From IMG/VR virus record IMGVR_UViG_2541047917_000003: a stretch of 45,350 bases of DNA. One strand, 5' to 3'. A program made the position numbers and the translations under genes. The notes below the pieces were generated by a model. The model saw nothing but the letters and a program-made list of their open reading frames with translations. It searched no databases and had not been told where the DNA came from. Source of the stretch: a virus. Taxonomy: Duplodnaviria > Heunggongvirae > Uroviricota > Caudoviricetes. Of this stretch, positions 20,613 through 44,020 are shown in pieces. Positions within the stretch are counted from its first letter, which is position 1; every line of letters begins with the position of its first letter.

Positions 20613-21134
20613 TCAGCACGCGATATCGAGAGTCAACTGCAGTTGCTCGCGCCAGTACTCAACATTTGCTTCAATAACCGGCTTATCCCATCGCCAGCGA
20701 GCCATCTCTCTTGCCCCATTGCTGGCTTTTGATTTCCGGTCATCGCGAATGCGACATGCTTGCTCATATTTCTGCTGCTCAGTCAGTTCACCGCGAAGCA
20801 GACTATCAATGTGCAGGTCGCACCACACAGCAAAACGAGCATCACACCAACGGGCAAATGCAACTGAAAGTTTTGGATGTAGCCACGTACCACCACCCCT
20901 GTCCTTTCGTGCCTTGCTGGTTTTTACATACCTCGATTGTGAGGGATGTAAAATTTGAGATTCTTTCCCGGTCAACGCTTCGTCTAAAGCACGAACGTAT
21001 TCAAGCGTTTCTGCCAAACGCATCCAGTTATCAATGCGTTTCCCAAATCTCTCAGCAACACCTGTGACGTTGATCCAACCATCAGTGTTGAAACTGACAA
21101 TTTCACCTTTGTAATTAAGTGGCACGATATTCAT
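20613..21134 (-). CDS. KilA-N domain protein
   Basis: 173-aa ORF; motif GGTWLHPKLSVAFARWCDARFAVWCD typical of the KilA-N DNA-binding domain; downstream of Rz. Confidence 0.7.
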   Translation of the reverse strand: MNIVPLNYKGEIVSFNTDGWINVTGVAERFGKRIDNWMRLAETLEYVRALDEALTGKESQILHPSQSRYVKTSKARKDRGGGTWLHPKLSVAFARWCDARFAVWCDLHIDSLLRGELTEQQKYEQACRIRDDRKSKASNGAREMARWRWDKPVIEANVEYWREQLQLTLDIAC

Positions 21135-21250
21135 AACGTTTACCTACCATTTGAAATGAACCTTTGCCGCACAGGAAACCAGCCCACCGAGGCTCGCCAG
21201 CACTAACTGGTATCCTCAAAGGCCCATTCCAAAGGGGCAGGTTCGGTGTA

Positions 21251-21307
21251 AAAAAAACATGCGTTGCGGTACGCATTTATTGCAAAAAAGCCCCGCATCG
21301 CGAGGCT
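21251..21307 (-). terminator. Two tandem intrinsic terminators downstream of Rz
   Basis: On the - strand: GCCTCGCGATGCGGGGC + TTTTTT (21284-21307) and ATGCGTACCGCAACGCAT + TTTTTTT (21251-21276). Confidence 0.6.
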
Positions 21308-21338
21308 CATTAAATGGACTTTGTGATTTGCAAAAAAA

Positions 21339-21797
21339 TTATTTCAGACATTGCGTCCTGATGTACTCCTGCAGGTAGTTAACCTGCGCGGTTATCCTGT
21401 CGATTCCACTTCGGAGACGGTAATAATTGAGTTCAGCATCTGCTGTAAGTCTTGGGCTTTCTCCATCGCCCATGCCGCTGGCTCCGGTCGTTGACTTTGC
21501 ACAGGTGGCGGCGACTTGCAGGCGCTTACGCCCAGCAGAAACATCAGCACGGAGACTTTCGATAGTCGCGTTAGCATCAGCAAGCTCCTTTGTGTATCTT
21601 GCGTCGAGTTCTGCTACATCACGTTGACGCTTCCGCATGTCAGCGATGGTGGCGTTCGCCTTCTCCAGTTCACTGGCCTTGTTATCGCGCTGCTCTTTGT
21701 AGGCGATTGCGTTATCACGGTAATGATTAACAGCCCATGACAGGCAGACGATGATGCAGATAACCAGAGCATAAATAATCGCGGCGACTCTGCTCAC
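21339..21797 (-). CDS. Rz: Spanin inner-membrane subunit Rz (i-spanin)
   Basis: ORF 21339..21812; likely GTG start overlapping the R stop (GTGA), giving (M)[30 protein letters not shown]..., close to lambda Rz N-terminus; TM helix plus coiled coil. Confidence 0.85.
21392..21583 (-). CDS. Rz1: Spanin outer-membrane lipoprotein Rz1 (o-spanin), embedded in Rz
   Basis: 63-aa ORF in the +1 frame inside Rz; signal peptide with lipobox (LLGVSAC) and Pro-rich segment. Confidence 0.75.
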
Positions 21798-22327
21798 TGA
21801 TCTATCCCCCAACAGGCTAATGCGCTTTCCTGGTCACGACGAATAACCTGTCCATAGCAGTTATTTGAACGTATGCGGCAATCGCGCCCACCATCTTTTA
21901 TCCACCAGCGAATCGCCTCGCATGCACCTTTACGATCACCGGCATTCAGCCGCTTATAAAACGTCGACGGGAAACACTTACCGGGGCCAATGTTATAGGG
22001 ACAAAATGACGCGATACCCGCTTTCTGTGGTTCGGTCAGTGGCACTTTAATATTGCGCTCCACCCATGCCAGCGCCTTATCCCGTTCAATGGCGTTAACC
22101 TGGTCGCATTTTTCCTTCGACAGTTTCATACCGGGAAAAACGGGTTTTCCATCCACCACCGTGGCACCCCGACAGATGGTCCAGATGCCGGAACCATCGC
22201 GGTATGCCGTTGTGTGGTTACCTTCTTTTTCATCCAGAAACTGGTCGAGAATATCAGGCGCAGGCGCACCGACGGCAATCAGTGCCAGAACGGCAGCCGA
22301 CAGGCCGTATCTGATTTTTGCGTTCAT
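21794..22327 (-). CDS. R: SAR endolysin (GH24 lysozyme with signal-anchor-release N-terminus)
   Basis: 177-aa ORF; N-terminal hydrophobic segment [16 protein letters not shown] then T4-lysozyme-like catalytic region (EG.HTTAYRD.SG.WTIC.G); resembles Qin/phage-21-type lysozymes, not lambda R. Confidence 0.9.
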
Positions 22328-22432
22328 GGATATTTATCAGGATTTATCGGTTTCTGAACCCTGGATATGTTTATCTGTCCCGGCCTGTTGAATCAGGCAA
22401 GGAATAGTTAAATACAATAGAGAGGATTGTTT

Positions 22433-22705
22433 ATGGACAATAGCACCATTTCTCTACAGGAGTTGCTCGACTGCATTTCCAGGCTTCGGGATGATGTAAA
22501 TGCCCTTACTGTCGCATTTTCATATCTGGCATTCTCAATTCCCAAGGAACAAATGCAACCAACACTGGCATCGCTCCAGCTTGAATCACTCAACCCCAAA
22601 TGGTCCCAGCAACAACAAAATTCTTTCAAGTGGCTGGCGGTATTACTGGAAGAAAAATATGCTGGTGAAATTACCATTTCGGCGGAGTCTTCAGAGAACC
22701 AGTAA
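22433..22705 (+). CDS. Hypothetical 90-aa protein on the opposite strand inside the lysis cassette
   Basis: ATG at 22433 preceded by AGAGGA; ORF track lists 22427..22705 from an upstream TTG. Convergent with and overlapping the 3' end of the 22671..23015 gene. No family recognised. Confidence 0.4.
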   Translation: MDNSTISLQELLDCISRLRDDVNALTVAFSYLAFSIPKEQMQPTLASLQLESLNPKWSQQQQNSFKWLAVLLEEKYAGEITISAESSENQ

Positions 22706-23015
22706 TTCTTCCCGGTAGCTTTCCTTTGTAGGTTATCCACACATTCTGCGCCTCTAAAATTATGGGGCGCTTTTCCGGCGACAGCTCATCCCCTTCACAT
22801 AACCCGGCAGCAACATCCAGGAAGACCTGTCTGATGCTCCTTCTGGCTGCTGCCTCATAAAACTCCAGCGCGGCACCTTCAACACGGTCCAGCGAGATGT
22901 CCAGGTCAAAAATTTCACCGTCAAAGCGTTTTTTGTCCCGTAACGCTAAAGTTACCGTAACTTTATTCTCAAAATTGCGGATCCCTTTCACAATCAGTTC
23001 ATAGTTTTGAGTCAT
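22671..23015 (-). CDS. Hypothetical protein between holin and endolysin (possibly YdfR/DUF1327-like)
   Basis: 114-aa ORF starting 5 nt after the holin stop; N-terminus MTQNYELIVKGIRNFENKVTVTLALRDKKRFDGEIFDLD. Family assignment is from memory. Confidence 0.5.
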   Translation of the reverse strand: MTQNYELIVKGIRNFENKVTVTLALRDKKRFDGEIFDLDISLDRVEGAALEFYEAAARRSIRQVFLDVAAGLCEGDELSPEKRPIILEAQNVWITYKGKLPGRITGSLKTPPKW

Positions 23016-23019
23016 TGAA

Positions 23020-23235
23020 TTACTCTCCCCGTGCAGCCTTACGCTTGTCTTCTTTAATCTTGAAATAAAGGTTTGTCAGGTACGTCAGCAGGCCAAATAC
23101 CAGGCTACCCAGCACTCCAATTGCCGCCCACTGTGAGGGCGTGACTTTATCTAGCAGCTGTAAAAACCAGTACCCGGCACTACCTGCTGAGGTGCCATAG
23201 GCGACACCCGTTGTTAACTTATCCATGGATTTCAT
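23020..23235 (-). CDS. S: Pinholin (phage-21 S-type) with dual start
   Basis: [26 protein letters not shown]...: two TM segments and charged C-terminus; MKxM dual start (antiholin/holin); SD gaggtgggg upstream. Confidence 0.85.
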
Positions 23236-23377
23236 AACCCCACCTCGCAGACAAAGCGGGTGTAAATTGAGGGAATACAACGTATCGCAAAAAAGCAGAA
23301 ACGTAACAGACTCGGAGTCAGTGAATAACTCAGGTATTGGGTTATCAGCTAATATCGAGACTCAAAAAATGGAAAAA

Positions 23378-23396
23378 CCCGCTCGACGGCGGGTTT
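23378..23396 (-). terminator. Intrinsic terminator-like hairpin upstream of the holin gene (candidate late-operon tR')
   Basis: CCCGC-TCGACG-GCGGG stem-loop with AAAAA on + (TTTTT on the - strand). Role as Q-modified terminator is inference. Confidence 0.4.
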
Positions 23397-23824
23397 AAGC
23401 TGTGTGACGAAGTAACCACTCTTAACAGCATAACCAATTTTTTACGTACGTAAACCACTAAATGATATTTGCGAGAATGCTACCGAGTATTGAAAACACC
23501 ACTACAAATACATAAGCAAATCTCAACAAATAACCAACAAATAATTTCCAGTGTTATTTTTAGCTGGTTTAAATTGAACCTTCAAATTATAGAGCACTTA
23601 TAAATAATAGCCGTTAATATAAATTGGCTAATAGATTTATTTTTATTCAGTCAAGAGCCATGAATAGGATTCGATAGAAAAAAGTTCAGATAAAAATAGA
23701 GATCTACTTCACAAATCAAACGAGAAACCAAAACTTACATCTTGAAATAATCACATTGATTAGATGAATATTTATCGCGCAGTGACATCATTTTTTAATA
23801 ATAGTTCAAAAAAAAGGGCTCACG

Positions 23825-24907
23825 ATGAAAAAATTAACAGTGGCAATTTCTGCTGTAGCTGCATCAGTACTGATGGCGATGTCTGCTCAGGCAGCTGAAA
23901 TTTATAATAAAGACAGTAACAAGCTGGATCTGTACGGGAAAGTTAATGCTAAGCACTACTTCTCCTCTAATGATGCAGATGATGGTGATACTACTTATGC
24001 CCGTCTTGGCTTCAAAGGTGAAACCCAAATCAACGATCAACTGACTGGTTTCGGTCAGTGGGAATATGAATTCAAAGGCAACCGCGCTGAATCTCAAGGT
24101 TCCTCCAAAGACAAAACCCGTCTTGCATTTGCAGGCCTGAAATTCGGTGACTACGGCTCAATCGATTACGGCCGTAACTACGGTGTAGCATACGACATCG
24201 GTGCGTGGACTGACGTTCTGCCAGAATTCGGTGGCGATACCTGGACCCAAACAGATGTGTTCATGACTGGTCGCACCACTGGTGTTGCAACCTATCGTAA
24301 CAACGACTTCTTTGGTCTGGTCGATGGCCTGAACTTTGCTGCTCAGTATCAGGGTAAAAATGACCGCACTGACGTAACTGAAGCCAATGGTGATGGTTTC
24401 GGTTTCTCCACTACTTATGAGTATGAAGGATTCGGCGTGGGTGCAACCTATGCTAAATCAGATCGCACTGACGGTCAGGTCGCCTATGGTAAGAGCAAAT
24501 TCAATGCCTCCGGCAAAAATGCGGAAGTATGGGCTGCAGGCCTGAAATATGATGCGAACAATATCTATCTGGCTACCACATATTCTGAAACTCAGAATAT
24601 GACCGTTTTTGGTAATAACCATATTGCAAACAAAGCACAAAACTTTGAAGCAGTAGCACAATATCAGTTTGACTTCGGTCTGCGACCATCTGTTGCTTAC
24701 CTTCAGTCAAAAGGTAAAGACCTTGGTGTTCATGGTGACCGAGACTTAGTCAAGTATGTCGATGTCGGTGCTACTTACTACTTTAATAAAAACATGTCCA
24801 CTTTTGTTGATTACAAAATCAACTTAATTGACGATAGTAAGTTTACCAAAACAGCTGGTATTGATACCGACGACATCGTCGCTGTAGGTCTGGTGTATCA
24901 GTTCTAA
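23825..24907 (+). CDS. Outer-membrane general porin, OmpC/OmpF family (phage-encoded Lc/NmpC-like)
   Basis: 360-aa ORF with signal peptide [30 protein letters not shown]...GKVN start and C-terminal ...VAVGLVYQF; sits between Q and S on the opposite strand as nmpC does in DLP12. Confidence 0.9.
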
Positions 24908-25040
24908 TCTGATTACGAAAAAGATATGTTGCGGGAGGCTTTGCCTCCCCAACATATAAGTGGCTCCCTCAAGCCACTTCCTTTAGGAGCACAACCTTGC
25001 TTCTAACTATATAAACCTTCTGTTATATATTACCCTTTAT

Positions 25041-25070
25041 TTTTGGGGGCGTTGCAACGCCCCATTTTTA
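25041..25070. terminator. Bidirectional intrinsic terminator between the porin and Q genes
   Basis: TTTT-GGGGGCGTTGCAACGCCCC-ATTTTT: perfect GC-rich stem flanked by T-runs on both strands, between two convergent genes. Confidence 0.8.
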
Positions 25071-25096
25071 ATAACTTTTAGTAAACAACTGGCATA

Positions 25097-25480
25097 TTAA
25101 TTAGAGTTATTAACAACGATATCCATCTCTAACCGGATATCTAATGCCATTAACATCCCTTCAATTATACCCTCAGCCTTCTGTAACCTTTTCCCGATAT
25201 AACCATCAGAGCAGCAATGCTTACCTGCCAGTGACATGAATGTCATACCGACTACATAATAATCTACTAATAAATCGTGCAAATCGCTGTTGTTCTTTTT
25301 CAGACGGGCCATGCACCCGCAAATGATCATCGCGTCATCGTCACAACATTGCGGGCGAGATTTTACTTTTGAAGGAATTAATCCCTTAAAACCGGCGGCA
25401 ATGGACGACCAGGTCACATCTTCATGATTATTAGCCGCCCACGCTCCCCAACGTTCAAGAACCATCTGAATATCACGCAT
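25097..25480 (-). CDS. Q: Late-gene antiterminator Q (phage 21 / DLP12 QuuD type)
   Basis: ORF 25097..25495; likely start [24 protein letters not shown]...; recalled near-identity to DLP12 QuuD; unrelated to lambda Q. Confidence 0.85.
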
Positions 25481-25565
25481 CAACTTACTCCACAAAAATC
25501 AGACCAGAACGCCAATTACAAGCAAAAATCAACAAAACAGTATTAGTTGATTGTTATCTCTGACT

Positions 25566-25688
25566 TCATACTCCTGCTCCTGTCAGGGTTTTGGCGTAAT
25601 TCTTCAGTATTCGGTAATCGGTCAAAACAGAACTGGGGAAACGATATAAGCGCAGGCGCATCCAGCGGTGGCGAAGAAGTTCTGCCAT
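25566..25688 (-). CDS. Small protein YlcG-like (40 aa)
   Basis: Short ORF between rusA and Q (MAELLRHRWMRLRLYRFPSSVLTDYRILKNYAKTLTGAGV) resembling DLP12 YlcG; below the ORF-track length cutoff; coordinates from manual translation. Confidence 0.45.
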   Translation of the reverse strand: MAELLRHRWMRLRLYRFPSSVLTDYRILKNYAKTLTGAGV

Positions 25689-25702
25689 ATTAAACTCAAA
25701 CA

Positions 25703-26065
25703 TCATTCATTCCCCATTTCGGTGATGGTCAGTTCCAGCCTCCCACCTTTGGTAACAGGCATCTTCACAACGCGGTAATCAACGACCTGAGCATCATCCA
25801 GCCAGAAACCTGCTTTAGTGAGTGCGTCAAAAGCGGCTTTTTGCAGATTATCCAGGTCACGGCGACGGCGATCCGGCATGTGGCACTCAATGCGGATTTT
25901 CACAGGGATAGCCAGGCCGATATCCAGCATTGCGTTTTTAATGATTCTGGCGACGTTATCGCGGTATGCCTGCCCCTCTGCGCTGACGTGCGTGCGCCCG
26001 CGATTATGGCGGTAATAGCGATTATTGCTCGGAGGCCAGGGTAATGTGATGCTGTAGGTATTCAC
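25703..26065 (-). CDS. rusA: Holliday-junction resolvase RusA
   Basis: 120-aa [39 protein letters not shown]..., recalled near-identity to DLP12 RusA. Confidence 0.95.
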
Positions 26066-26268
26066 GCCTTAATAATCCCCTCTTTCAGCCACATAACCTG
26101 TGTTTTCGAGCGCGCATTCTTTTGCATATGCAGCATCGACTTGCTTGGCATGCCCTTTACCGGCAATCTTCTGTATGCGCTAAACCTAGATAGAATCCAC
26201 TCTGTGCTCATTGAAGCCCGCTCTATGCTTCCTTTCTGGTATTGAAGGGATTGAGATGGGCTAAGCAT
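26062..26268 (-). pseudogene. Decayed remnant of a ybcO-like (DUF1364) gene
   Basis: 68-aa ORF whose C-terminus (...[13 protein letters not shown]) matches the recalled YbcO C-terminus, while an adjacent frame encodes ...VDAAYAKECALE; the N-terminal zinc-ribbon part is absent. Confidence 0.4.
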
Positions 26269-26608
26269 TATTGGCCTCCTGCATCAGGAGAAAGACAATC
26301 ATGGCGGCGCGGAGAGGTCTGGTATCAAATATTGGGCTTACGCCTTTTGCATCCACACACCATTCAGTTAACTGGTCTAAGATAGAAATCCTGTATTTCT
26401 CAATAATCGGCCATGAAGCGCTCGGATCATTGCAGTAGTCAGGCAAATGATTTAATGGCTCAAAAGTTGTATCAGCATTTCCGTAATACCATTTGTTGGT
26501 GTTATTCCCTGATGTTTCCGGTTTACTTGCCCAAAGGCCTTTAAAAATTATGTCTCCTACCATTCTGTTAATTTCAAAATCACTTAACTGTGAATAATCC
26601 ATTGTCAT
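26261..26608 (-). CDS. nin-region hypothetical protein
   Basis: ORF 26261..26644; likely start [28 protein letters not shown] with ATGA overlap on the ninE stop. Family not assigned. Confidence 0.5.
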
Positions 26609-26781
26609 TTCCTCGCACGATATCTTAGCCACCGGATATCCCACAGGTGAGCTGTGTAATTGAAGGTTTTTACGTCAGATTCTTTTGGGATTGGCTTGCG
26701 TTTATTTCTGGAGCGTTTCGTTGGAAGGTATTTGCAGTTTTCGCAGATGATGTCGGTGAAACTTCGTCGCTGTCGCCTCAT
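26605..26781 (-). CDS. ninE: NinE
   Basis: 58-aa product [58 protein letters not shown]; ATGA overlap with the MTase stop; matches recalled NinE. Confidence 0.7.
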
Positions 26782-27305
26782 GCCGCCCTCCTGACGCCCT
26801 GCCCGATCGCCATCAATGCCGCTTTGGATACGGTAGTAAACATCCGTCGAGGACTGATGAACGGTCGCCAAATCAGCAGCATGGAGCCTTTGCTGTTTCC
26901 CTTCTTCTCCAACCCTGTCGATGGTTCGATAAAATTAATCCGTCCATCAGTGATAATGCGAACTTCGTCGACACTCTCCAGAGCCTTGCTGAACCATCCG
27001 ACTGACATATCCTCTGGCACAAGCATAACTACCGTCTGTCGCTGTTGTATGCACTGCTCAGCGGCTTTTTCCACCCACGGCCTGATATTGCTGTACGGTG
27101 GGTTATTCCAGATTGCACCGTGGCTTACCCACTCAGAATTGAGCGCGTCGTCGGCCTCAGTTAGCCAGTGAGCACACAGAGCATTTTTGTCGCTCGCTGC
27201 CGAATCCAGCCAGAATCCAAACTCAATATCCAGTGCATCAAAAAGCCAAAGCGGCGTTTGCCAGCAGTCCTTGTCGTGTGCTGGCGTATTTGATTTGATT
27301 GTCAT
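26778..27305 (-). CDS. Phage DNA N6-adenine methyltransferase (Dam-like, NPPY motif)
   Basis: ORF 26778..27365; likely start [26 protein letters not shown] (ATGA overlap with ninB stop); catalytic NNPPYS motif. Confidence 0.8.
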
Positions 27306-28804: not shown

Positions 28805-29631
28805 AGATCCACCCCGTAAATCCAGTCTGTGTTTGTCAGGTCGAGTTTTGGTTTGCTGGCTGTCACGCCTGCCTGTTGCTTGTTACGGTTGATTTCGAGT
28901 TGGGTCCACTTATCGCGGAGTTTGGCCGGGCTCAGCACGTTACCGGACCAGAAGTTGTCCTGGCATGCCCAGCGGAACAGCACGCACATGTCGCGGTGGT
29001 TACGTCCGTCACGTTCACGCATCAGGCGGATATCGTTAGCCCACCCAGCAAAATTCGGTTTTCTGGCTGATGGTGCGATAGTCTTCACCATGTCAAACAT
29101 CCACTCTGCGGCGGTCAGGTCTTCTGCTGTCCCCCACTTGCTGCCGCTCTGAATTGCAGCATCCGGTTTCACCACAGAAAGGTCGTTTTCTGGCTGGTCA
29201 GAGGATTCGCCAGAATTCTCTGACGAATAATCTTTTCTTTTTTCTTTTGTAATAGTGTCTTTTGTGTCCCCCTGTTTTGAGGGATAGCAATCCCCCAATT
29301 TGAGGGATGTTTTATCCCTCGTTTTAGGGGATTTTCCCTCGTTTTGAGGGATGCACCATTCTGAGATGTTTTTATTTGGTCCAAACATGCCGCCTTGCTG
29401 CTTGATAATATTCATTCTGACGAGTTCTAACTTGGCTTCATTGCACCGTTTGACAGGTAACTTTGTAATCTCGCTAAGTTGAGAATCGGTGATTCTGTCC
29501 ATTGGTTTATTCCACCCATAGGTTTTACGCAGAATGGCAAGCAGCACTTTAAACTGTCGCTTGGTCAGATCTGCGCCCGAATAAGCCTCAAGCAGCATAT
29601 TTGATAGTCTGGCGTAACCATCATCGAGATC
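28801..29631 (-). pseudogene. O: Replication initiator O, 3' portion (codons ~24 to end) separated from its start by an IS element
   Basis: Lambda O-like sequence from ...DLDDGYARLSNMLLEAYSGADLTKRQFKVLL... to the end. The ORF-track start at 29661 is a GTG inside the IS left end (MWITIAPFVT-DLDD fusion). Confidence 0.85.
29266..29353. repeat. ori-lambda iterons (four ~19-bp O-binding repeats) with adjacent AT-rich region
   Basis: tcccccctgttttgaggga / atcccccaatttgaggga / atccctcgttttagggga / tccctcgttttgaggga inside the O coding region, next to a T-rich stretch (29221-29260). Coordinates approximate. Confidence 0.85.
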
Positions 29632-31659
<2,028 letters not shown>

Positions 31660-31691
31660 AATGACTCCTGTTGATAGATCCAGTAATGACC

Positions 31692-31988
31692 TCAGAACTC
31701 CATCTGGATTTGTTCAGAACGCTCGGTTGCCGCCGGGCGTTTTTTATTGGTGAGTCCATCAAGCGCATACTTAAAAGCCCTGCTAATCGGACTGATGTCT
31801 GATGCCATTCCGAAAGCACACAAGACCGAAGCAATAAATCTCCAATCCGTTCTGCTTATCTTCGATTCATGACAGCCAATCATCTTTGCCAGACCGCGCT
31901 GGGTAATAGCTGACAGATTGATAAGTAAATCTGTTTCTGCGCGATCAACGTCACGCTGTGATAGTTTGCTGTAACTTGTTCTTTCCAT
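31692..31988 (-). CDS. cII: Transcriptional activator cII (chimeric: non-lambda N-terminal part, lambda-type C-terminus)
   Basis: 98-aa ORF; C-terminus ...LTNKKRPAATERSEQIQMEF as in lambda cII; N-terminal HTH region differs. Confidence 0.8.
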   Translation of the reverse strand: MERTSYSKLSQRDVDRAETDLLINLSAITQRGLAKMIGCHESKISRTDWRFIASVLCAFGMASDISPISRAFKYALDGLTNKKRPAATERSEQIQMEF

Positions 31989-32073
31989 TTCTTAAGATTT
32001 CCAATAGTGAATAGTTAGTTGAAAGGTATGCGTGGAAACGCATATGGCCTTAGTTGGTCAGATATCTTGGAAC

Positions 32074-32119
32074 TCGCTTTTCAGCGACGTAGGACGAATG
32101 TCCGTTGTTACAAAGAGCG
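32074..32119 (-). promoter_or_regulatory. nutR-like site (boxA CGCTCTTTG and boxB hairpin TCGCTGAAAAGCGA) between cro and cII
   Basis: Coding-strand boxA-like CGCTCTTTG just after the cro stop, followed by a stem-loop with GAAAA-type loop; matching pair also upstream of N. Confidence 0.6.
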
Positions 32120-32129
32120 GATCCGCTTA

Positions 32130-32345
32130 TTAAGCGGCTTTGTGTTCCGGCGGGAACACGTCATCAAGACTGACTTTTGCGCCTAACTTGTTTAGGCACG
32201 CAACAAGAGCACGGCATGTTTTAAGGTCTGGGAAGCGACGACCAGATTCCCAATGTCCGATAGCTCCCTGTGTGCATCCAACTGCCTTAGCAAGTGTTGT
32301 TTGAGAGATATTCAGTGACTCTCGATATTTTCGTAGGTTGCTCAT
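32130..32345 (-). CDS. cro: Cro-like repressor (HTH, non-lambda specificity)
   Basis: ORF 32130..32438; likely start MSNLRKYRESLNISQTTLAKAVGCTQGAIGHWESGRR (71 aa, SD ggaggg); divergent from cI. Confidence 0.8.
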   Translation of the reverse strand: MSNLRKYRESLNISQTTLAKAVGCTQGAIGHWESGRRFPDLKTCRALVACLNKLGAKVSLDDVFPPEHKAA

Positions 32346-32455
32346 ATGCCCTCCATAGTAAACACGAATAAAAAATACAATATGTACTTTACGAATACAA
32401 GTAAAAATACACATTGTGCATGGATGGTTCCAGTACAAAGCGTAATAATAAGGAC
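32346..32455. promoter_or_regulatory. OR operator / pR-pRM divergent promoter region
   Basis: 110-bp AT-rich spacer between divergent cro and cI; motifs AATACAATATGTACTT (32374-32389) and AGTACAAAGCGTAATAA (32432-32448) recur near pL, consistent with shared repressor operators distinct from lambda. Confidence 0.6.
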
Positions 32456-33115
32456 ATGAAAATGAAATGGTATGAACTGGCTAGATCCAGAATGAAAGAG
32501 CTCGGCATAACTCAAGAGAAGTTAGCCGAAGAGCTAGGTATGACGCAGGGTGGGATTGGACACTGGTTGCGCGGATCTCGTCATCCATCTCTTAGTGATA
32601 TTGGTGTGGTGTTTAAATACCTTGGTATTGATAACATATCATTCAACCACGACGGGACATTTTCACCTGTTGGCGAATACTCATCGGCCCCAGTTAAAAA
32701 ACAATATGAGTACCCTGTTTTTTCTCATGTTCAGGCTGGGATGTTCTCTCCAGAACTCAGAACCTTTACCAAAGGCGATGCGGAGAGATTGGTAAGCACA
32801 ACCAAAAAAGCCAGTGACTCTGCATTCTGGCTTGAGGTTGAAGGTAACTCAATGACCGCACCAACAGGTTCCAAGCCCAGCTTTCCTGACGGGATGTTAA
32901 TTCTGGTTGACCCTGAGCAGGCTGTTGAGCCAGGCGATTTCTGTATAGCCAGACTTGGTGGTGATGAGTTTACCTTCAAGAAACTGATCAGGGATAGCGG
33001 TCAGATGTTTCTACAGCCACTAAACCCACAATACCCAATGATCCCATGCAATGAGAGTTGTTCCGTTGTGGGGAAAGTTATCGCTAGTCAGTGGCCTGAA
33101 GAGACGTTTGGGTGA
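32456..33115 (+). CDS. cI: CI repressor (chimeric: non-lambda DNA-binding domain, lambda-type C-terminal S24 peptidase domain)
   Basis: ATG at 32456. From ...[28 protein letters not shown] to ...[13 protein letters not shown] matches the recalled lambda CI C-terminal domain; N-terminal HTH domain ([37 protein letters not shown]) differs. Confidence 0.9.
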
Positions 33116-33214
33116 TGTGACTGCATGTAATTTATCAAAAGCGCACATACCCTATGCTAAACAACTTACTGATTAATTTACTGAAAATCATTTATTAAAA
33201 AGTAAGGATTGCCA

Positions 33215-34066
33215 ATGAATTTTTCGGAAGAAAAAAATAAAGATTTCCCCAAAAAAGTACAAACTTCGCTATTTGAAGTAGATTGTAATGACGGATACTC
33301 ATTTGTAGATGTCTTGAAGACATGCGAAAATTTCAAACAAAACTATGACTTTGAGTACTCTAACGACACTCGGGCAAGGATAAAAAGTCTAATAGTTAAC
33401 GATGACCAAATCTTTGCTGGGATAACACTCTATGAGCCCAAAGCTTTGGTCCCGGTAACTCCAAAAGATGGAGACCATAACGATTTGCAGGATGTAGATA
33501 ATTATGATAAATGCCATATATTCTTGCTTGCAACAGAAAGCAATATTCTAACAATTTTTCAACTATCAGGAACTCATCCTTTATCTAAGTTAAAAAAAAT
33601 ATTTAGCCTCATGAATATCAATGTGAATATTTCTGAGAAACTCAACAAAGATGCACTTGGCAAGATAATAAAAGATGGAATACGCTCCATCAGCCTAAGT
33701 ATTGAAACAACAAAAGAAGATCTAGAAGAGGCAAAAGCAACATCATTAGGTATCACTGGAAAAGCTAAAGAAGCTTTGTCAAGATTATTTGAGAAAGAGC
33801 AAGATGATGACAACTCTTTCTATGGGCTTCTGACTCTTGACAAGAGACATAACCCAAAACTCTTAAATATTGCGAACAAAAATCCAAGCCTGATCATTGA
33901 TGAATTATCGGAAGAGTTCTTCATCACAACATCAAAAGGCCAAGCGATCAAAAGCTCTGAAATCAAAACAAAAAAAGATTATTACACAAGAAAGTATGGC
34001 TCTACCACCATAAAAGCGGAACACGCTAAGGAAATTCTTGAGCACTTCAAGGATTTCATACTATAA
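33215..34066 (+). CDS. Hypothetical protein in the rexA position (candidate exclusion-system sensor)
   Basis: 283-aa ORF (ATG 33215, SD aaggat) 100 nt downstream of cI on the same strand; AT-, Lys-, Asn- and Asp-rich; no hydrophobic segments; no family recognised. Confidence 0.6.
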   Translation: MNFSEEKNKDFPKKVQTSLFEVDCNDGYSFVDVLKTCENFKQNYDFEYSNDTRARIKSLIVNDDQIFAGITLYEPKALVPVTPKDGDHNDLQDVDNYDKCHIFLLATESNILTIFQLSGTHPLSKLKKIFSLMNINVNISEKLNKDALGKIIKDGIRSISLSIETTKEDLEEAKATSLGITGKAKEALSRLFEKEQDDDNSFYGLLTLDKRHNPKLLNIANKNPSLIIDELSEEFFITTSKGQAIKSSEIKTKKDYYTRKYGSTTIKAEHAKEILEHFKDFIL

Positions 34067-34103
34067 TGGAGGGTTGTACGTATAACCAAAGGGGGAGGTG
34101 TGA

Positions 34104-34595
34104 ATGAGAGGTAAAGATTGGAGTTATATTTTTTCCATAATCTTTTTTATCTGCCTTTCTCTTGTATTAACTTATTATTTACATGATAAGGTTAGATATA
34201 ACAAAGAGTTGCTTGGACTTGTGGCAAATATATTTTCAATATTAACAGGGTTTCTGTTACTTGTTATAACCACAAGTGGAGACGTAGCATCGTTTACAGA
34301 AGGTAAATCAAGATCAGAAAAGTATGCAACTAAGAGGAAATTCGAAATTCGGTTTTCTCGTTACATGATGCTTTTTTACCTCTATCTTACAGTCTTGTGC
34401 TTAATATTCTTCTACTACATGCTGCTGCCACCAGGAGACACCAGTAAAATCTTAGCAAGCAAGCCGCCTGTGACCAACCTGAGTCTGGCACTTGAGTTTA
34501 TTATATGCTGGCTAAGCATAATTTCATTTGGATGCTCTTTTTTCATACCAATAAAGCTGAAACAGATTTATAACGAAAAACTCAAGCAACAATAA
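34104..34595 (+). CDS. Hypothetical four-TM membrane protein in the rexB position (candidate exclusion-system effector)
   Basis: 163-aa ORF (SD gggggagg) with four hydrophobic segments (IFSIIFFICLSLVLTYYL, LLGLVANIFSILTGFLLLVITT, YMMLFYLYLTVLCLIFFYYMLL, LSLALEFIICWLSIISFGCSFFIPI); size and topology as RexB, no sequence similarity seen. Confidence 0.6.
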   Translation: MRGKDWSYIFSIIFFICLSLVLTYYLHDKVRYNKELLGLVANIFSILTGFLLLVITTSGDVASFTEGKSRSEKYATKRKFEIRFSRYMMLFYLYLTVLCLIFFYYMLLPPGDTSKILASKPPVTNLSLALEFIICWLSIISFGCSFFIPIKLKQIYNEKLKQQ

Positions 34596-34620
34596 CCCGG
34601 TCTCAGCGCCGGGTTTTCTT
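34596..34620 (+). terminator. Intrinsic terminator after the rex-position cassette
   Basis: CCCGGTCTCAGCGCCGGG hairpin directly after the stop codon, followed by TTTTCTTT. Confidence 0.75.
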
Positions 34621-34759
34621 TGCCTCACGATCGCCCCACCTAAAAACACATAACCAATTGTATTTATTGAAAAATAAATAGATGCAACCCACTAAACCAC
34701 GCAATTCTGATCTCTCCTTACATCGCCGAGGCAATACATCCACGCTAAAAAACAACACT

Positions 34760-34850
34760 ATTAAATACAAAGCGTTATAAAAAACCACGCCAACTTACAA
34801 CAAATTGTATTGATCTTGTAAAGTACATATCGTACTATTTAATCGTCAGC
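34760..34850 (+). promoter_or_regulatory. OL operator / pL promoter region
   Basis: AATACAAAGCGTTATAA (34764-34780) and AAGTACATATCGTACT (34821-34836) repeat the OR motifs; upstream of nutL and N. Exact -35/-10 not resolved. Confidence 0.5.
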
Positions 34851-34883
34851 AGGACGCTGGAAGCCAAATGGAACAGACTGGCA

Positions 34884-34929
34884 GGCTCTTTAAACAACGT
34901 CGACTCTCGACTACGTGGCTGAAAAGCCA
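34884..34929 (+). promoter_or_regulatory. nutL-like site (boxA GGCTCTTTA and boxB hairpin TGGCTGAAAAGCCA)
   Basis: boxA-like 34884-34892 and a 4-bp stem/GAAAA-type loop hairpin 34916-34929, ~100 nt upstream of the N start. Confidence 0.6.
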
Positions 34930-35027
34930 GATCACCCAACCACATAAGCTGTGGGATGCAATGCCGAAGCAACCGTCTCAGGAGGAGCTTCGAGATTGCA
35001 TCGCCAAAGTTTATTCGGGAGGAATCC

Positions 35028-35300
35028 ATGTCCAGAAAAACAGAATTTAAAGGCACCGCAGCTTCTCGCCGTAGAGCTCGTCGCGCAAATCTGCAAAGTC
35101 AGGAGGCGATCAGCTCCGACAAGCTACACAGGCCAACCCCTTCACGAGTGGTCTTGCAATGCAAGCGCAAACCAGCAATGAGAGCAGAAGTGATAACTCT
35201 GACAACGTTGACCAGAAAATATGAAGGTTCAACTTGTCTTCCGAACGTAGCCATTTACGCGGCAGGCTACAGGAAATCAAAACAACTGACGGCGAGATGA
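35028..35300 (+). CDS. N: N-like transcription antiterminator (non-lambda specificity)
   Basis: ORF track 34956..35300; likely start MSRKTEFKGTAASRRRARRANLQ (SD ggagg). Arginine-rich motif near the N-terminus; first pL gene downstream of nutL. Confidence 0.65.
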   Translation: MSRKTEFKGTAASRRRARRANLQSQEAISSDKLHRPTPSRVVLQCKRKPAMRAEVITLTTLTRKYEGSTCLPNVAIYAAGYRKSKQLTAR

Positions 35301-35315
35301 TAAATCATTTGCTAA

Positions 35316-35897
35316 TTACTTGTTTTTGCCATGCTTATCCTGAGCGATAAGTTCATCCATAAGACTGTCTTTCTTCCCAGCAAACCTAATGTAGCACTCA
35401 TTTCTATAGCGTTCCGGGATAACAAAACGGTCGATTTCAGGATATCCAGTAGCAGAAGGTATCCGAATAAGAAGCCCTTTTTCGAGCAATGAGATTGCTT
35501 CAGGGCTTCCCTTTTCTGTCTTTAGCTGGTTATTCGCGGCTACAGCGAATGCCAAATACGCTCTTTCTCCAAGAGTTAACGAATCAAACAAATCTTGCAC
35601 ATATTTTTCTTCTTTAGATTTGCGCTTCTGAGCAGCGGATACCTCAATTCTTTCAGTCACAGCGTGATAAGCGGAATTAACAACACCGTTAAGCACATAG
35701 CTAACGCAGAACAACAGGATGTAATACATCCAATAATGAGGAAGGATTTCTGGATTATGCAGGTTTATCCATTCTTTTACGCTTACCGGCATAACAATAA
35801 TCAATATGATCAGGATGATTAGCATATGAATCAACTGTTTAAGTGTCATTCCTTGCAGGAAAAAATGCATTAGTTCCTGCCACCATGAGTTGTTCAT
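35316..35897 (-). CDS. sieB: Superinfection exclusion protein SieB-like (membrane protein)
   Basis: 193-aa ORF convergent with N; N-terminal TM segments then soluble C-terminal domain; position between N and ral as lambda sieB. Family assignment from memory. Confidence 0.55.
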   Translation of the reverse strand: MNNSWWQELMHFFLQGMTLKQLIHMLIILIILIIVMPVSVKEWINLHNPEILPHYWMYYILLFCVSYVLNGVVNSAYHAVTERIEVSAAQKRKSKEEKYVQDLFDSLTLGERAYLAFAVAANNQLKTEKGSPEAISLLEKGLLIRIPSATGYPEIDRFVIPERYRNECYIRFAGKKDSLMDELIAQDKHGKNK

Positions 35898-36110
35898 CGG
35901 CGTTTCTCTTTTGCTCTCTGTAGGGGTGAATAGAGTTTATCCGATTTCTCGCTGTAGGGGTACACGAGAACCACCGAGCCTGATGTGGTTAAAAGACAGG
36001 CACAATCTTTACTACCGCAATCCACTATTTAAGGTGATACACGGAAGAAGAATTTGAAGAGTTCGAAGAGCATCCTCAGGATGTGATGGAACAATACCAG
36101 GACTATCCGT

Positions 36111-36311
36111 ATGACTACGACTATTGATAAAAATCAATGGTGTGGACAATTCAAGCGATGCAATGGATGCAAGCTGCAATCGGAATGCATGGTTAAGCCT
36201 GAAGAAATGTTTCCTGTAATGGAAGATGGGAAATATGTCGATAAATGGGCAATACGAACGACGGCAATGATTGCCAGAGAACTTGGTAAACAGAACAACA
36301 AAGCTGCCTGA
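36111..36311 (+). CDS. ral: Restriction alleviation protein Ral
   Basis: 66-aa ORF MTTTIDKNQWCGQFKRCNGCKLQSECMVKPEEMF...; size and position as lambda Ral. Confidence 0.7.
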   Translation: MTTTIDKNQWCGQFKRCNGCKLQSECMVKPEEMFPVMEDGKYVDKWAIRTTAMIARELGKQNNKAA

Positions 36312-36493
36312 TAGTGGCCTTTATTTTTGGCATAAATAACAGAATAAACACTGCACTGTGTATTCATTCCAACGAGTGAATACACGGAGCAATGTCGCTC
36401 GTAACTAAACAGGAGCCGACTTGTTCTGATTATTGGAAATCTTCTTTGCCCTCCAGTGTGAGGGCGATTTTTTATCTATGAGGATATGAATAG

Positions 36494-36862
36494 ATGTCAA
36501 ACATCAAAAAATACATCATTGATTACGACTGGAAAGCATCAATAGAAATTGAAATCGATCATGACGTAATGACAGAGGAAAAACTTCACCAGATTAATAA
36601 TTTCTGGTCAGACTCTGAATACCGACTCAATAAACACGGCTCTGTATTAAATGCTGTATTAATCATGCTGGCGCAACATGCTCTGCTTATAGCAATTTCA
36701 AGCGACTTAAATGCATATGGTGTTGTGTGTGAGTTCGACTGGAATGATGGAAATGGTCAGGAAGGATGGCCTCCAATGGATGGTAGCGAAGGAATAAGAA
36801 TTACCGATATCGATACATCAGGAATATTTGATCCAGATGATATGACTATCAAAGCCGCCTGA
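36494..36862 (+). CDS. ea10: Ea10-like protein
   Basis: 122-aa ORF in the lambda ea10 position. Confidence 0.65.
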   Translation: MSNIKKYIIDYDWKASIEIEIDHDVMTEEKLHQINNFWSDSEYRLNKHGSVLNAVLIMLAQHALLIAISSDLNAYGVVCEFDWNDGNGQEGWPPMDGSEGIRITDIDTSGIFDPDDMTIKAA

Positions 36863-36934
36863 GCGCGGCGTTACCGCATACCAATAACGCTTCACTCGAG
36901 GCGTTTTTCGTTATGTATAAATAAGGAGCACACC

Positions 36935-37099
36935 ATGCAATATGCCATTGCAGGGTGGCCTGTTGCTGGCTGCCCTTCCGAATCTTTACTTGAACGAATC
37001 ACCCGTAAATTACGTGACGGATGGAAACGCCTTATCGACATACTTAATCAGCCAGGAGTCCCAAAAAATGGATCAAACACTTATGGCTATCCAGACTAA
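36935..37099 (+). CDS. cIII: CIII (FtsH inhibitor stabilising CII)
   Basis: 54-aa [57 protein letters not shown], matching recalled lambda CIII; below ORF-track cutoff; start 7 nt before ORF 36942. Confidence 0.85.
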   Translation: MQYAIAGWPVAGCPSESLLERITRKLRDGWKRLIDILNQPGVPKNGSNTYGYPD

Positions 37100-40005: not shown

Positions 40006-40409
40006 GCGAAATTAACTCTCAGGCACTGCGTGAAGCGGCAGAGAAAGCCGGTGAAGATAAGTGGCAGGCTAAAAAAATAAATGGTGATTTTTTCGTTATT
40101 CGTCACGGTAGTTATACAAGACAGCATGGCTACACATCGTATCAACCCATTGCGGAGATTGATTGTAAGCCAGTCCGGGATTTTGTTGCCAAGGCTAATC
40201 CGGCTACCGTGCTGGAATTACTGGATGAACTGGAAGCAGCAAAAAAGCGCATTGCAGAACTGGAAGCGCGGGAAATACTGCTCCCGGAACGTAGCAGCAT
40301 GCTTCATCGAACAGATTTTCACGATGATTACCAAACGGTAATGGCATACAAAGTTTCTGAAGTCATCGATGCAATCCGCGCTACTGGCATTCGCATCAAA
40401 GGAGAGTGA
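40002..40409 (+). CDS. exo-xis region protein with coiled-coil segment (hypothetical)
   Basis: 135-aa ORF overlapping the preceding stop; LDELEAAKKRIAELEARE heptad-like segment; occupies part of the ea22 slot. Confidence 0.5.
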   Translation: MSEINSQALREAAEKAGEDKWQAKKINGDFFVIRHGSYTRQHGYTSYQPIAEIDCKPVRDFVAKANPATVLELLDELEAAKKRIAELEAREILLPERSSMLHRTDFHDDYQTVMAYKVSEVIDAIRATGIRIKGE

Positions 40410-40410
40410 G

Positions 40411-41166
40411 ATGATTCACTACCACGGTGGGCCTATTACTCCTGATACGTGCGCAATGAGAGCATGGAAAGGGCGACATGCGTTTATCAGTTTTGCGCAT
40501 TCAGGCCAGATCAATCTCGCGGCTGAATACTGTCAGTCGTTCGCGCTGGACAACGGTGCATTCACCGCCTGGAAAGCAGCTGGCAAAAACAAAATCGACT
40601 GGAGCGATTACTACGAGTTTGTTGCTCGCTGGAAGAATCACCCAGGATTCGATTTTGCCATTATCCCGGATATTATTGATGGCGGAGAGGAGGAAAATGA
40701 TGCGCTTCTGAATGAGTGGCCTCACGGAAAACTAGCTGGCGTTCCAGTGTGGCACATGAATGAAAGTGACGCGCGATTTATTCATTTGTGCAATGAGTTT
40801 CCGCGAGTGGCTATCGGTAGTTGTGGCGACTATGACGTAAAGCGCCCAACTCTTGCGGTAGCCAGAATGAAAGACCTGATTCGTCACATTGTTGATGGGC
40901 ATGGTCAGCCGGTTACGAAACTACATGGATTGCGCATGTTAAATCCGCTGATATTCACAAAATTACCCTTAGCCAGCGCAGATAGTACGAACGTCGCTCG
41001 AAACATCGGTATTGATAAAGCCTGGTCTGGGGCTTATGCACCTGCAAGTAAAGAGACACGCGCAGCATTAATGGTAGAACGGATTGAGGCACACAATAGC
41101 CCTGGTTCTCTTGCGTATTGTGAACAACGCGACCGCTTTGAAATGCAATTGCAACTAGCAGTTTAA
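40411..41166 (+). CDS. TGT-fold protein, candidate DpdA-like DNA-guanine transglycosylase
   Basis: ORF 40369..41166; likely start MIHYHGGPITPD (ATG 40411, SD aaaggagag). Motifs FALDNGAF and LASADSTNVARNIG resemble, from memory, the E. coli Tgt catalytic motifs LTDSGGFQ and DMFDCVMPTRNARNG; no CxCxxC zinc site seen. Confidence 0.45.
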   Translation: MIHYHGGPITPDTCAMRAWKGRHAFISFAHSGQINLAAEYCQSFALDNGAFTAWKAAGKNKIDWSDYYEFVARWKNHPGFDFAIIPDIIDGGEEENDALLNEWPHGKLAGVPVWHMNESDARFIHLCNEFPRVAIGSCGDYDVKRPTLAVARMKDLIRHIVDGHGQPVTKLHGLRMLNPLIFTKLPLASADSTNVARNIGIDKAWSGAYAPASKETRAALMVERIEAHNSPGSLAYCEQRDRFEMQLQLAV

Positions 41167-41176
41167 GGACTAACAA

Positions 41177-41974
41177 ATGACCACTATTACCAAAGAACGT
41201 ATTGAATTGTTCATTAAAAATCCGCTTGAAAACGGGCTTACTCGTGGCGAACAAATGGAACTGGCACGAATTGCACTGGCATCACTGGAACGCGAACTGA
41301 TTCGCCACGAGCATGCCAAATGGTCTGACTCCACATTTGGCTGCGTTGGCCCCATTGGTCCACTGAAACACCTCTCAAAAGAGGCTCTGGAAGCCGCAGC
41401 CGAACCAGACGATCTCAGCGAGTGGGCTGATATGCATTTCCTGTTGTGGGATGCACAGCGCCGTGCTGGCATCAGCGATGCTGAAATTACCGCTGCTATG
41501 GAAGATAAATTGAAGATCAACATGGAGCGCCAGTGGCCTGAACCAAAAGATGGTGAGCCTCGCTTGCACATTAAAGAACCCGGCAACTCTCCGGTAATTC
41601 CGGATGGTTTATCCACGGTATGCGCTGAGGCTTATCAGGTTGTAGGAGTTATGGCAGATGCGCTTGGTGTATTCGGTGATGCAGCAGTACAGAAAGTTCT
41701 GGATAACCTGTCACAGCAAAAACTTGTTCACAAAGATGTGCTGCCGTTCTCGCTTCCGGTGACTCCGGATGGTTGGATAAGCTGTAGTGAGCGAATGCCG
41801 AAAGAAACGGGTGACATTATTGTTGTTTCGGATGGCATTGTAATGTCCGGGATTTCTTATTCTCGTCGTGACGGGTTCTATATAGCCGCATTGGAGTACG
41901 ACGACGATGAGCCAATTGGCGGTGTAACCCACTGGATGCCTCTACCAGAACCGCCTCGATTAAAGGAGCTATAA
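41177..41974 (+). CDS. DUF550 (MazG-like nucleotide pyrophosphohydrolase) plus DUF551 protein, YfdR/YfdS-like
   Basis: 265-aa ORF; N-terminal KHLSKEALEAAAEPDDLSEWADMHFLLWDAQRRAGIS resembles MazG/HisE-type helices; C-terminal ...DGWISCSERMPKE...THWMPLPEPP resembles DUF551. From memory. Confidence 0.55.
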   Translation: MTTITKERIELFIKNPLENGLTRGEQMELARIALASLERELIRHEHAKWSDSTFGCVGPIGPLKHLSKEALEAAAEPDDLSEWADMHFLLWDAQRRAGISDAEITAAMEDKLKINMERQWPEPKDGEPRLHIKEPGNSPVIPDGLSTVCAEAYQVVGVMADALGVFGDAAVQKVLDNLSQQKLVHKDVLPFSLPVTPDGWISCSERMPKETGDIIVVSDGIVMSGISYSRRDGFYIAALEYDDDEPIGGVTHWMPLPEPPRLKEL

Positions 41975-42088
41975 TAGTGAACTATTATATCTATTTGTAT
42001 TAAAAGAGTTTTTATAAAATAAATCTCCCAAAGCATGTAAAAACACTGTTAATCTTAACGTGTGTGAAACGTGAAGAGAGGTGTTGAA

Positions 42089-42370
42089 ATGAGCATTCAT
42101 GATTTGTGTGAAGATCAAGAGCAATGGGCTATGCAGACCCTTATGGGATCAGGAGTTCTTGCAAGGTGCAGAATCCATAACGATGTAATTTTAGACAGCG
42201 GAAATGATGCTTCTTCTGCTTATAAATTAGGAACTTACCTATATCAAAAAGATAATAGCTGCAACTTATTCAATACTCTTACTGAAGCCCGCGACGCAAT
42301 AAAGGATGCATATGAATCGTATTGTGGGATCGATGATTGCCCACAATGCTCAAAATACATTGACGATTAA
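42089..42370 (+). CDS. ea8.5: Ea8.5-like protein
   Basis: ORF 42071..42370; likely start MSIHDLCEDQEQWAMQTL (93 aa, SD agagaggtg); C-terminal CPQCSKYIDD zinc-binding tail; lambda ea8.5 position ~295 nt before xis. Confidence 0.6.
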   Translation: MSIHDLCEDQEQWAMQTLMGSGVLARCRIHNDVILDSGNDASSAYKLGTYLYQKDNSCNLFNTLTEARDAIKDAYESYCGIDDCPQCSKYIDD

Positions 42371-44005: not shown

Positions 44006-44020
44006 TTAGTATAAAAAAGC
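44006..44020. other. attL core (15-bp lambda att common core; B-O-P' junction)
   Basis: + strand ttagtataaaaaagc is the reverse complement of GCTTTTTTATACTAA; flanked on the int side by P'-arm sequence (GTTGGCATTATAAAAAAGCATTGCTTATCAATTTGTTGCAACGAACAGGTCACTATCAGTCAAAATAAAATCATTATT) and on the other side by host sequence. Confidence 0.85.

Follow-up and report, generated by a model that had tools for sequence, protein, structure and literature searches.

Identity and setting of the immunity region

How does a lambdoid prophage come to carry a repressor gene (cI) and an activator gene (cII) that each end as in phage lambda but begin differently, and which immunity would it confer? The question is raised by positions 31692 to 35300 of a 45,350-nucleotide (nt) stretch of viral DNA (IMG/VR record IMGVR_UViG_2541047917_000003), the whole of which is referred to here as the window. 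The original prediction, made from the sequence alone, had read this region as an immunity module of non-lambda specificity that was exchanged into a lambda backbone by recombination within coding sequences. We are highly confident that the region is an early regulatory module of lambdoid phages of the VT2-Sakai type, located in a lambda-like E. coli prophage at the lambda attachment site. The core of the module, i.e., cro, the right operator region (OR) and the N-terminal part of cI, is 97.9% identical over 575 nt to the Stx2 phage VT2-Sakai (AP000363) and 98.3 to 98.4% identical to Stx2 II and YYZ-2008; the range of 97.9 to 98.4% also takes in Nil2 and the PA-series Stx2a phages (Stx, Shiga toxin). 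The segments cII-cro-cI and OL-N (OL, left operator region) are 94 to 96% identical to Stx phages, and the entire 3.8-kb region shows 99.3% identity to phages 2G7b and PhiR11_1 and 99.3 to 100% identity to seven complete E. coli chromosomes. The core was found at 802 places in 776 of 5,426 complete E. coli genomes (~14%), or roughly every seventh genome. Both the module with its operators and the half-lambda CI were described 25 years ago, and the feature is known as well as common; as originally stated, the finding therefore adds little new and is a textbook case of lambdoid mosaicism.

The setting was defined by blastn against lambda (NC_001416). The prophage, whose orientation is reversed with respect to the standard lambda map, contains long blocks of 96 to 100% identity comprising the head and tail genes, the joined cos site, ninB-ren-P-O, ral to exo, and xis plus int. 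It ends in the lambda attachment core (44006 to 44020), with a ybhC-like pectinesterase gene directly past it. Within positions 31755 to 35917, no lambda match was found save two islands. The expectation that the flanking genes stay lambda-like was borne out for O-P-ren-ninB (99.6%) and for ral to exo (98%), but the rex locus and sieB are replaced. As sieB (35316 to 35897, − strand; 193 residues, PF14163) is a non-lambda allele, with lambda identity back from 35918, the non-lambda block ends at 35917 and not at the N stop at 35300.

Hybrid cI and cII genes

The repressor gene of the window is a hybrid. Its 5′ part (32462 to 32704, + strand) encodes an HTH_3 DNA-binding domain of the VT2-Sakai type, and its 3′ part (32705 to 33115, + strand) encodes the linker and the Peptidase_S24 C-terminal domain; the respective Pfam matches, the first of them to a helix-turn-helix (HTH) domain, are PF01381 and PF00717. 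In the blastn comparison, positions 32705 to 33116 align with lambda 37637 to 37226 at 94.7% identity, and from the YEYPVF motif to the stop 135 of 137 residues are the same as in lambda CI. Upstream of codon 82, i.e., before the YEYPVF codons, a global alignment detected no DNA similarity to lambda, the switch occurring within a few bases. The claim of a lambda-like C-terminal and a different N-terminal part of CI was thus correct. The junction is located in the inter-domain linker, ten residues before the cleavage site, so that the operators, cro and the DNA-binding domain move together. CI retains the Ala-Gly site (residues 92 and 93), Ser 130 of GNSM and Lys 173/174 of FKKL, all aligned with those of lambda, and from the near-identity of the C-terminal region we infer that it would undergo RecA-stimulated autocleavage. 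Translation probably starts at the ATG at 32462, behind AAGGA; in relatives cI is annotated from the ATG at 32420, but that start would put the operator OR3 inside the gene.

A second junction lies in cII (31692 to 31988, − strand), which encodes a 98-residue protein with a PF05269 match (E = 7e-34, residues 1 to 92). Codons 79 to 98 are identical to lambda, whereas the rest is of the VT2-Sakai type. Specifically, positions 31586 to 31754, extending from the last 63 nt of cII into the start of O, match lambda 38759 to 38591 at 100% (blastn), and the last 20 residues of CII, LTNKKRPAATERSEQIQMEF, are those of lambda CII. For the remainder of cII no DNA similarity to lambda was found and protein similarity is weak, the 43% identity of the two CII proteins being calculated over the whole BLASTP alignment with the identical tail included. 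A lambda-type end behind a different N-terminal portion had likewise been noted in the original prediction. Phage 21 was considered as the source of the immunity region since the imm21 substitution ends inside cII; no phage 21 record was among the matches.

The position of the cII junction is explained by a gene on the other strand. The antisense RNA gene oop with its terminator (31670 to 31746, + strand; terminator stem 31716 to 31743) overlaps the last 55 nt of cII. Its promoter (31634 to 31662, + strand; TTGAGT-17-CATAAT with TG, found by promoter scan), the 77-nt body and the terminator are intact, at 100% lambda identity, and the folding z score is −3.9. Lambda identity stops at 31754, only 8 bp past the oop terminator, which places the junction at the edge of the oop-O-P replication module rather than at an arbitrary point of cII. 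A scan of positions 31000 to 37000 with Rfam matched only the cIII thermoregulator; as there is no Rfam family for oop or for the nut sites, both assignments are based on lambda identity and folding. The oop RNA would act antisense to the 3′ end of cII.

A candidate promoter for repressor establishment, PRE (31966 to 31998, + strand), was located within the start of cII. The CII-type repeat TTGC-N6-TTGT is present at its −35 position on the cI strand (TTGCTGTAACTTGT, 31966 to 31979), followed by a −10 hexamer TAAGAT (31993 to 31998). The repeat pattern by itself is not rare (8 found versus 5.6 expected), and it is the position that counts; spacing and placement within the start of cII are those of lambda PRE. 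CII, although encoded by divergent DNA, is a PF05269 protein and would be expected to activate PRE at this repeat.

Operators, promoters and Cro

The operators of the window are six 17-bp sites, three at OR and three at OL. OR1 (AAGTACATATTGTATTT, 32373 to 32389) and OR2 (ATGCACAATGTGTATTT, 32405 to 32421) are identical to the published VT2-Sakai sites, and OR3 (TATTACGCTTTGTACTG, 32431 to 32447) has one change. On the − strand, OL3 (TATAACGCTTTGTATTT, 34763 to 34779) and OL2 (CAATACAATTTGTTGTA, 34796 to 34812) each differ by one base from the published sites, and OL1 (TAGTACGATATGTACTT, 34821 to 34837) is identical. Thus, all six match the list of VT2-Sakai operators OR1 to OR3 and OL1 to OL3 (Table S1 of PMC10742460) in the expected order, three identically and three with one base changed. 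The half-site is AAGTACA, and OL1 forms a near-perfect palindrome centred on AGTAC-N5-GTACT. Each of the motifs AAGTACATATNGTANT and TACAAAGCGTNATAA has just two copies in the 45 kb, one at OR and the other at OL, against a chance expectation of zero. These motifs had been recognised as unlike lambda in the original prediction, which stands; the contrast it drew with the 17-bp lambda sites does not, because the window operators, too, are 17 bp long and arranged 3+3 as in lambda. A search for the lambda-operator pattern (TATCACCGC..GGTGATA type) with up to three mismatches gave no match in the window and five of six sites in the lambda control. On alignment and pattern search, neither full-length lambda identity of the N-terminal regions of cI and cII nor lambda-type operators were found, the two outcomes named beforehand as contradicting a foreign module. 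The short palindrome AGTAC-N5-GTACT was not enriched when two mismatches were allowed (10 found versus 8.6 expected), only matches with at most one mismatch clustering at OR and OL; the operator assignment is therefore based on the longer motifs together with the published sites. At 34649 to 34665, a seventh, weak operator-like site scored 13.7, compared to a shuffle maximum averaging 12.9.

The promoter PR (32372 to 32400, − strand) was read from the sequence in alignment with PL and consists of a −35 hexamer TTGTAT, a 17-bp spacer containing OR1, and a −10 hexamer TATTTT. PL (34810 to 34838) has the arrangement TTGATC-17-TACTAT, with OL1 in the spacer. By analogy with lambda, CI would bind the three operators at OR and the three at OL, shut PR and PL, and regulate its own promoter. 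The cro gene (32130 to 32345, − strand) encodes a 71-residue protein of the HTH_3 type, to which lambda Cro does not belong. The window Cro shares ~50% identity with PDB chain 28tn_A, a "lambda repressor-like protein". Neither cro nor N has a blastn match in lambda, in agreement with the earlier description of both proteins as non-lambda, N being a PF25694 protein. Cro, a 434/P22-like HTH protein, would bind the same sites as CI.

N and the nut sites

The antitermination system follows the same pattern. N (35028 to 35300, + strand) is a 90-residue protein that matches PF25694 over residues 1 to 90 (E = 8e-32) and PHROG 271 and is not of the lambda N type. It is 98.9% identical to N of Stx1/Stx2 phages and ~40% identical to the 127-residue N of phi24B/Min27-type phages. 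Its N-terminus is arginine-rich, and its C-terminal tail ...YAAGYRKSKQLTAR is conserved. N is a mosaic in its own right. Its C-terminal 24 residues, GSTCLPNVAIYAAGYRKSKQLTAR, match N of HK630 and of several further lambda-like phages at 96% and P22 gp24 at 75%, whereas the remainder of the protein matches neither the HK630-type N nor P22 gp24.

A pattern composed of boxA (GCTCTTT) and the hairpin GCTGAAAAGC with a variable gap had exactly two matches, one downstream of PL and one downstream of cro. In nutR (32074 to 32118, − strand), boxA (32105 to 32118) is followed by a spacer hairpin (32092 to 32103) and by boxB, TCGCU-GAAA-AGCGA (32074 to 32087); nutL (34885 to 34929, + strand) comprises boxA (34885 to 34897), a spacer hairpin (34899 to 34911) and boxB, UGGCU-GAAA-AGCCA (34916 to 34929). 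The GAAAA-type loop originally ascribed to both boxB hairpins is present as a string, but the hairpin folds with a 4-nt GAAA loop on a 5-bp stem whose closing pair is U-A, unlike the 5-nt loop of lambda, and a second hairpin is located in each spacer. The boxB stems of nutL and nutR differ by one compensatory change of G:C to C:G, and both nut sites are identical to those of the VT2-Sakai group. N would thus be predicted to recognise the GAAA-loop boxB hairpin in nutL and nutR. The closest described N-nut system is that of H-19B and other Stx phages, which has boxA, a spacer hairpin and a tetraloop boxB alike; nutR of H-19B was described with two hairpins and a tetraloop boxB (PMC3526286). The phi24B/Min27-type system differs in the length and sequence of its N, as given above, and the likeness to H-19B is drawn through the description of that phage. 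The C-terminal tail of H-19B N presumably resembles that of the window N. A perfect 6-bp hairpin, CCGCTT-ATT-AAGCGG (32123 to 32137, + strand), was observed over the boundary at the cro stop (32130), just upstream of the nutR boxA.

Origin of the patchwork

Alignment to lambda and to Stx-type phages, which had been proposed for placing the breakpoints, put positions 31754 and 32705 among them. Together with 32130 (cro stop), 33116 (cI stop), 34594 (terminator hairpin), 35300 (N stop) and 35918, they recur in eight other phages. Judged from these comparisons, the best reading is a repeated exchange of functional units among lambdoid phages by recombination, which fits better than a single recent insertion with both ends inside genes. 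The boundaries would then lie at unit edges, namely the oop 3′ end, the cro stop, the cI linker, the cI stop, the terminator behind the rex locus, the N stop and the start of sieB. Conserved patches common to phages of different immunity (the cI C-terminal domain, the oop/cII 3′ end and the terminator segment) probably serve as homology for the crossovers. In phages phi458 and 720R6, cro-OR-cI is the same, but nutR, N and the N-terminal part of cII are not; the swap of nutR together with N fits the need for nutR to match N. Since the breakpoints coincide with unit edges, one of them being where an antisense RNA gene ends within cII, "junctions inside genes" can be module boundaries.

The main alternative, which we consider unlikely although not negligible, is one recent exchange of a foreign immunity module into lambda with crossovers in cI and cII, in which the C-terminal domain of cI represents the recipient backbone. 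Both junctions are sharp and the flanks are lambda-like, as this requires, and on the cII side a recent crossover is in fact plausible, because the block starting in cII is 100% lambda and continuous with O-P-ren at 99.6%. The cI side does not fit. The C-terminal domain of cI differs from lambda at 22 of 412 nt, 20 of the differences being synonymous and 2 non-synonymous in 137 codons, compared to complete identity in the adjacent oop/O block; the cI junction is thus unlikely to be the place where this module joined this backbone. The domain groups with other carriers of this immunity type (96 to 99.8%) and not with lambda, and on its other side it is bordered by the non-lambda rex slot, OL, N and sieB up to 35917. 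Even the lambda-immune phage ev099 is nearer to the window than lambda is in this domain (97.1%), with a single difference over the 3′ ~240 nt of cI and a differing 5′ part, and the pattern of variable sites among phages with either immunity is a patchwork. Moreover, the same cI junction is present in every carrier examined, i.e., VT2-Sakai, 2B8, ev017, phi458 and 720R6, whose backbones differ. A junction common to all carriers and a patchwork behind it point to an old boundary in a segment that keeps recombining, and the C-terminal domain looks like such an older segment rather than a recent "lambda backbone". Of the originally proposed exchange within coding sequences, the mosaic structure and the sharp junctions in cI and cII therefore remain, though not the implied direction into lambda; the cI junction, however, looks old, and the cII junction is the edge of oop.

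Several points weigh against the reading of the region as a lambda-style regulatory module assembled by repeated unit exchange. The centre-to-centre spacings of the operators (32 bp for OR1-OR2, 26 bp for OR2-OR3, 25 bp for OL1-OL2 and 33 bp for OL2-OL3) are wider than those in lambda (20 to 24 bp), so that lambda-style pairwise cooperativity may not apply. OR2 and OL2 are the weakest matches to the consensus, and a strict sigma-70 scan missed PR, PL and PRM. The ranking of the six operators as the top six sites is circular, because the scoring matrix was built from these same sites; the independent support consists of the motif counts and the published list. Operator occupancy, cooperativity, RecA-stimulated cleavage and antitermination are all deduced from homology and layout, and the panel on which the breakpoints were placed comprised only ten phages.

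Specificity of immunity

Because both the operators and the recognition domain of CI differ from those of lambda, the specificity differs by sequence, and the prophage is probably heteroimmune to lambda. A partial cross-immunity or interference with lambda, brought about by related recognition helices or by mixed oligomers, appears rather improbable, but there are data on its side. Fattah et al. 2000, as cited in a passage of PMC10742460, reported cross-immunity between VT2-Sakai and lambda, and lambda CI was found to bind VT2-Sakai operators with apparent dissociation constants (Kd) of 3.7 to 6.4 µM (PMC10742460). The HTH regions are similar (GMGQSGVGALFNG in lambda versus its 13-residue counterpart in the window CI), and the C-terminal domains differ at only 2 of 137 residues, which makes mixed oligomers with lambda-immunity repressors conceivable in double lysogens. 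If formed there, such oligomers could underlie the cross-immunity reported in the literature. Opposed to this are the lack of any lambda-type operator in the window even with three mismatches and the affinities themselves: the same study gives Kd values of lambda CI of 0.21 to 0.35 µM for lambda OL1 and OR1 and of 3.07 µM for lambda OR3 (PMC10742460), so that binding to the VT2-Sakai operators is 10 to 25 times weaker than to lambda OR1/OL1 and similar to that to lambda OR3 alone. The 24 E. coli genomes with two copies of the core are uninformative regarding cross-immunity with lambda in either direction. No stx genes are present in the window, and a non-Stx prophage with VT2-Sakai-type immunity should immunise its host against Stx2 phages of that type, which matters for the spread of stx.

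Alternatives without recombination

A rapid divergence of the N-terminal parts of CI and CII toward a new specificity, with the C-terminal parts held by purifying selection, would explain the two junctions without any exchange. In its favour, the homology of the two CI N-terminal domains can still be recognised in the HTH, identity between the CII proteins amounts to 43% overall, and the 3′ end of cII is under a double constraint since it encodes oop too. Nevertheless, protein selection cannot hold synonymous sites at ~95 to 100% identity beside DNA that cannot be aligned; this explanation is therefore close to refuted, and the change within a few bases and the patchwork of variable C-terminal sites, a signature of recombination, argue in the same direction. 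An assembly chimera or sequencing artefact is barely conceivable, as four phage records (two each for 2G7b and PhiR11_1) and the seven complete E. coli chromosomes carry this arrangement over its full length.

The cassette in the rex slot

Between the cI stop and the terminator upstream of OL, the window carries two unannotated genes with a GC content of 0.34. The first, orf283 (33215 to 34066, + strand), occupies the rexA position, and the second, orf163 (34104 to 34595, + strand), the rexB position, where it is a conserved partner of orf283. The protein orf283 was assigned the RexA/RdgC fold. Its AlphaFold model has a predicted local distance difference test (pLDDT) value of 78.5; a Foldseek search with this model found nothing. 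The pair resembles lambda RexA/RexB in its location after cI and before the terminator and in the sizes of the proteins (283 and 163 residues versus 279 and 144), and orf163 has four hydrophobic segments as RexB does. There is, however, no sequence similarity: BLASTP of orf283 and orf163 against RexA and RexB gave E values above 1, neither protein matched Pfam, PADLOC or the RexA/RexB families, and hhalign of orf163 against the RexB family returned a probability of 0.2%. Furthermore, orf283 is acidic (isoelectric point 5.6) whereas RexA is basic (8.6), and the pair is conserved also in Morganella, where it adjoins tail genes. Both families are small and restricted to Enterobacterales, and the cassette is present in 7 of the 5,426 complete E. 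coli genomes.

The slot itself (33116 to 34594) has at least six occupants in ten phages, all between the same two boundaries: rexAB in lambda and SfI, a NYN-domain gene in 2B8 and ev099, a hypothetical gene plus DUF1828 in ev017, other open reading frames in VT2-Sakai and phi458, and almost nothing in 720R6. Its right boundary in all phages compared is a segment of ~130 bp (34587 to 34716, + strand) that contains the terminator (hairpin 34594 to 34615) and an A/T-rich stretch upstream of OL; it is 90% identical to lambda 35833 to 35708 and conserved although the adjacent operators differ. We give about even chances to the proposal that the slot is a swap site for prophage-expressed defence cassettes, with the cI C-terminal domain and the terminator segment as homology arms, and that orf283/orf163 is an unrecognised, very divergent Rex-like exclusion system, consisting of a RexA-fold protein and an unrelated membrane partner with four hydrophobic segments, which is also mobile in Morganella, Salmonella, Edwardsiella and Xenorhabdus. 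This RexA-fold cassette is the only part of the region that would add something new.

Neighbouring genes and prophage backbone

Beside the module, the replication gene O is interrupted. Its first ~24 codons (31586 to 31659, − strand) are of the lambda type and 100% lambda-identical, and are followed by a copy of the insertion sequence IS100 (IS21 family; 29632 to 31585, + strand) with istA (29718 to 30740) and istB (30737 to 31519). The 5-bp target duplication AGATC is found at 29627 to 29631 and 31586 to 31590. The element is not part of the immunity module, and a search of the 5,426 complete E. coli genomes did not find the IS100/O junction. Because O is interrupted, the prophage is probably defective in replication and unable to replicate after induction.

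The term "lambda backbone" is only partly accurate, since the late-regulation, lysis and nin regions and part of the b/ea region are largely non-lambda. The stretches concerned, 19419 to 27298 and 40044 to 42323, include another member of the Q family, a lysozyme-type endolysin, a KilA-N protein, DUF1398 and a dATP/dGTP pyrophosphohydrolase-DUF551 protein. Between Q (25097 to 25495) and the lysis genes, a general porin gene is located (23825 to 24907, + strand; 360 residues, Porin_1 E = 2e-151); in PhiR11_1, an annotated OmpD-like porin adjoins Q on the flank that faces away from the immunity region. At 36922 to 36980 (+ strand), the window retains an intact lambda cIII thermoregulator RNA element (RF01804, 88.5 bits).

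Comparison with known immunity regions

That immunity cassettes swap between lambdoid backbones, with boundaries that may fall inside genes, is familiar from the classical lambda imm434 and imm21 hybrids and from modular theory. Those are laboratory hybrids or have other specificities, unlike the module of the window. With lambda itself, the window shares the gene order, the 3+3 operator layout, the linker and C-terminal domain of cI (94.7% at the DNA level), oop and the cII 3′ end (100%), the terminator segment after the rex slot (90%), the TTGC repeat at PRE and the integration site, whereas the DNA-binding domain of CI, the type of Cro, the operator sequence, the N-terminal 78 residues of CII, the N family, the boxB loop and the extra spacer hairpin in nut are different, rexAB is replaced, and sieB is another allele. 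The immunity region of VT2-Sakai, found also in Stx2 II, the Morioka Stx1-converting phage, Nil2, YYZ-2008, 1717 and the PA phages, has the same alleles of cII, cro, OR, cI, OL, nutL/nutR and N, and its CI likewise is a hybrid of its own N-terminal domain and a lambda-like C-terminal domain. VT2-Sakai differs in its backbone, the window having lambda-type O/P and structural genes, and in the cassette between cI and OL. The lambda-like, non-Stx phages 2G7b and PhiR11_1 differ from the window in that their O gene is intact and not interrupted by IS100; over the whole region, the orf283/orf163 cassette and sieB included, they match it at 99.3%.

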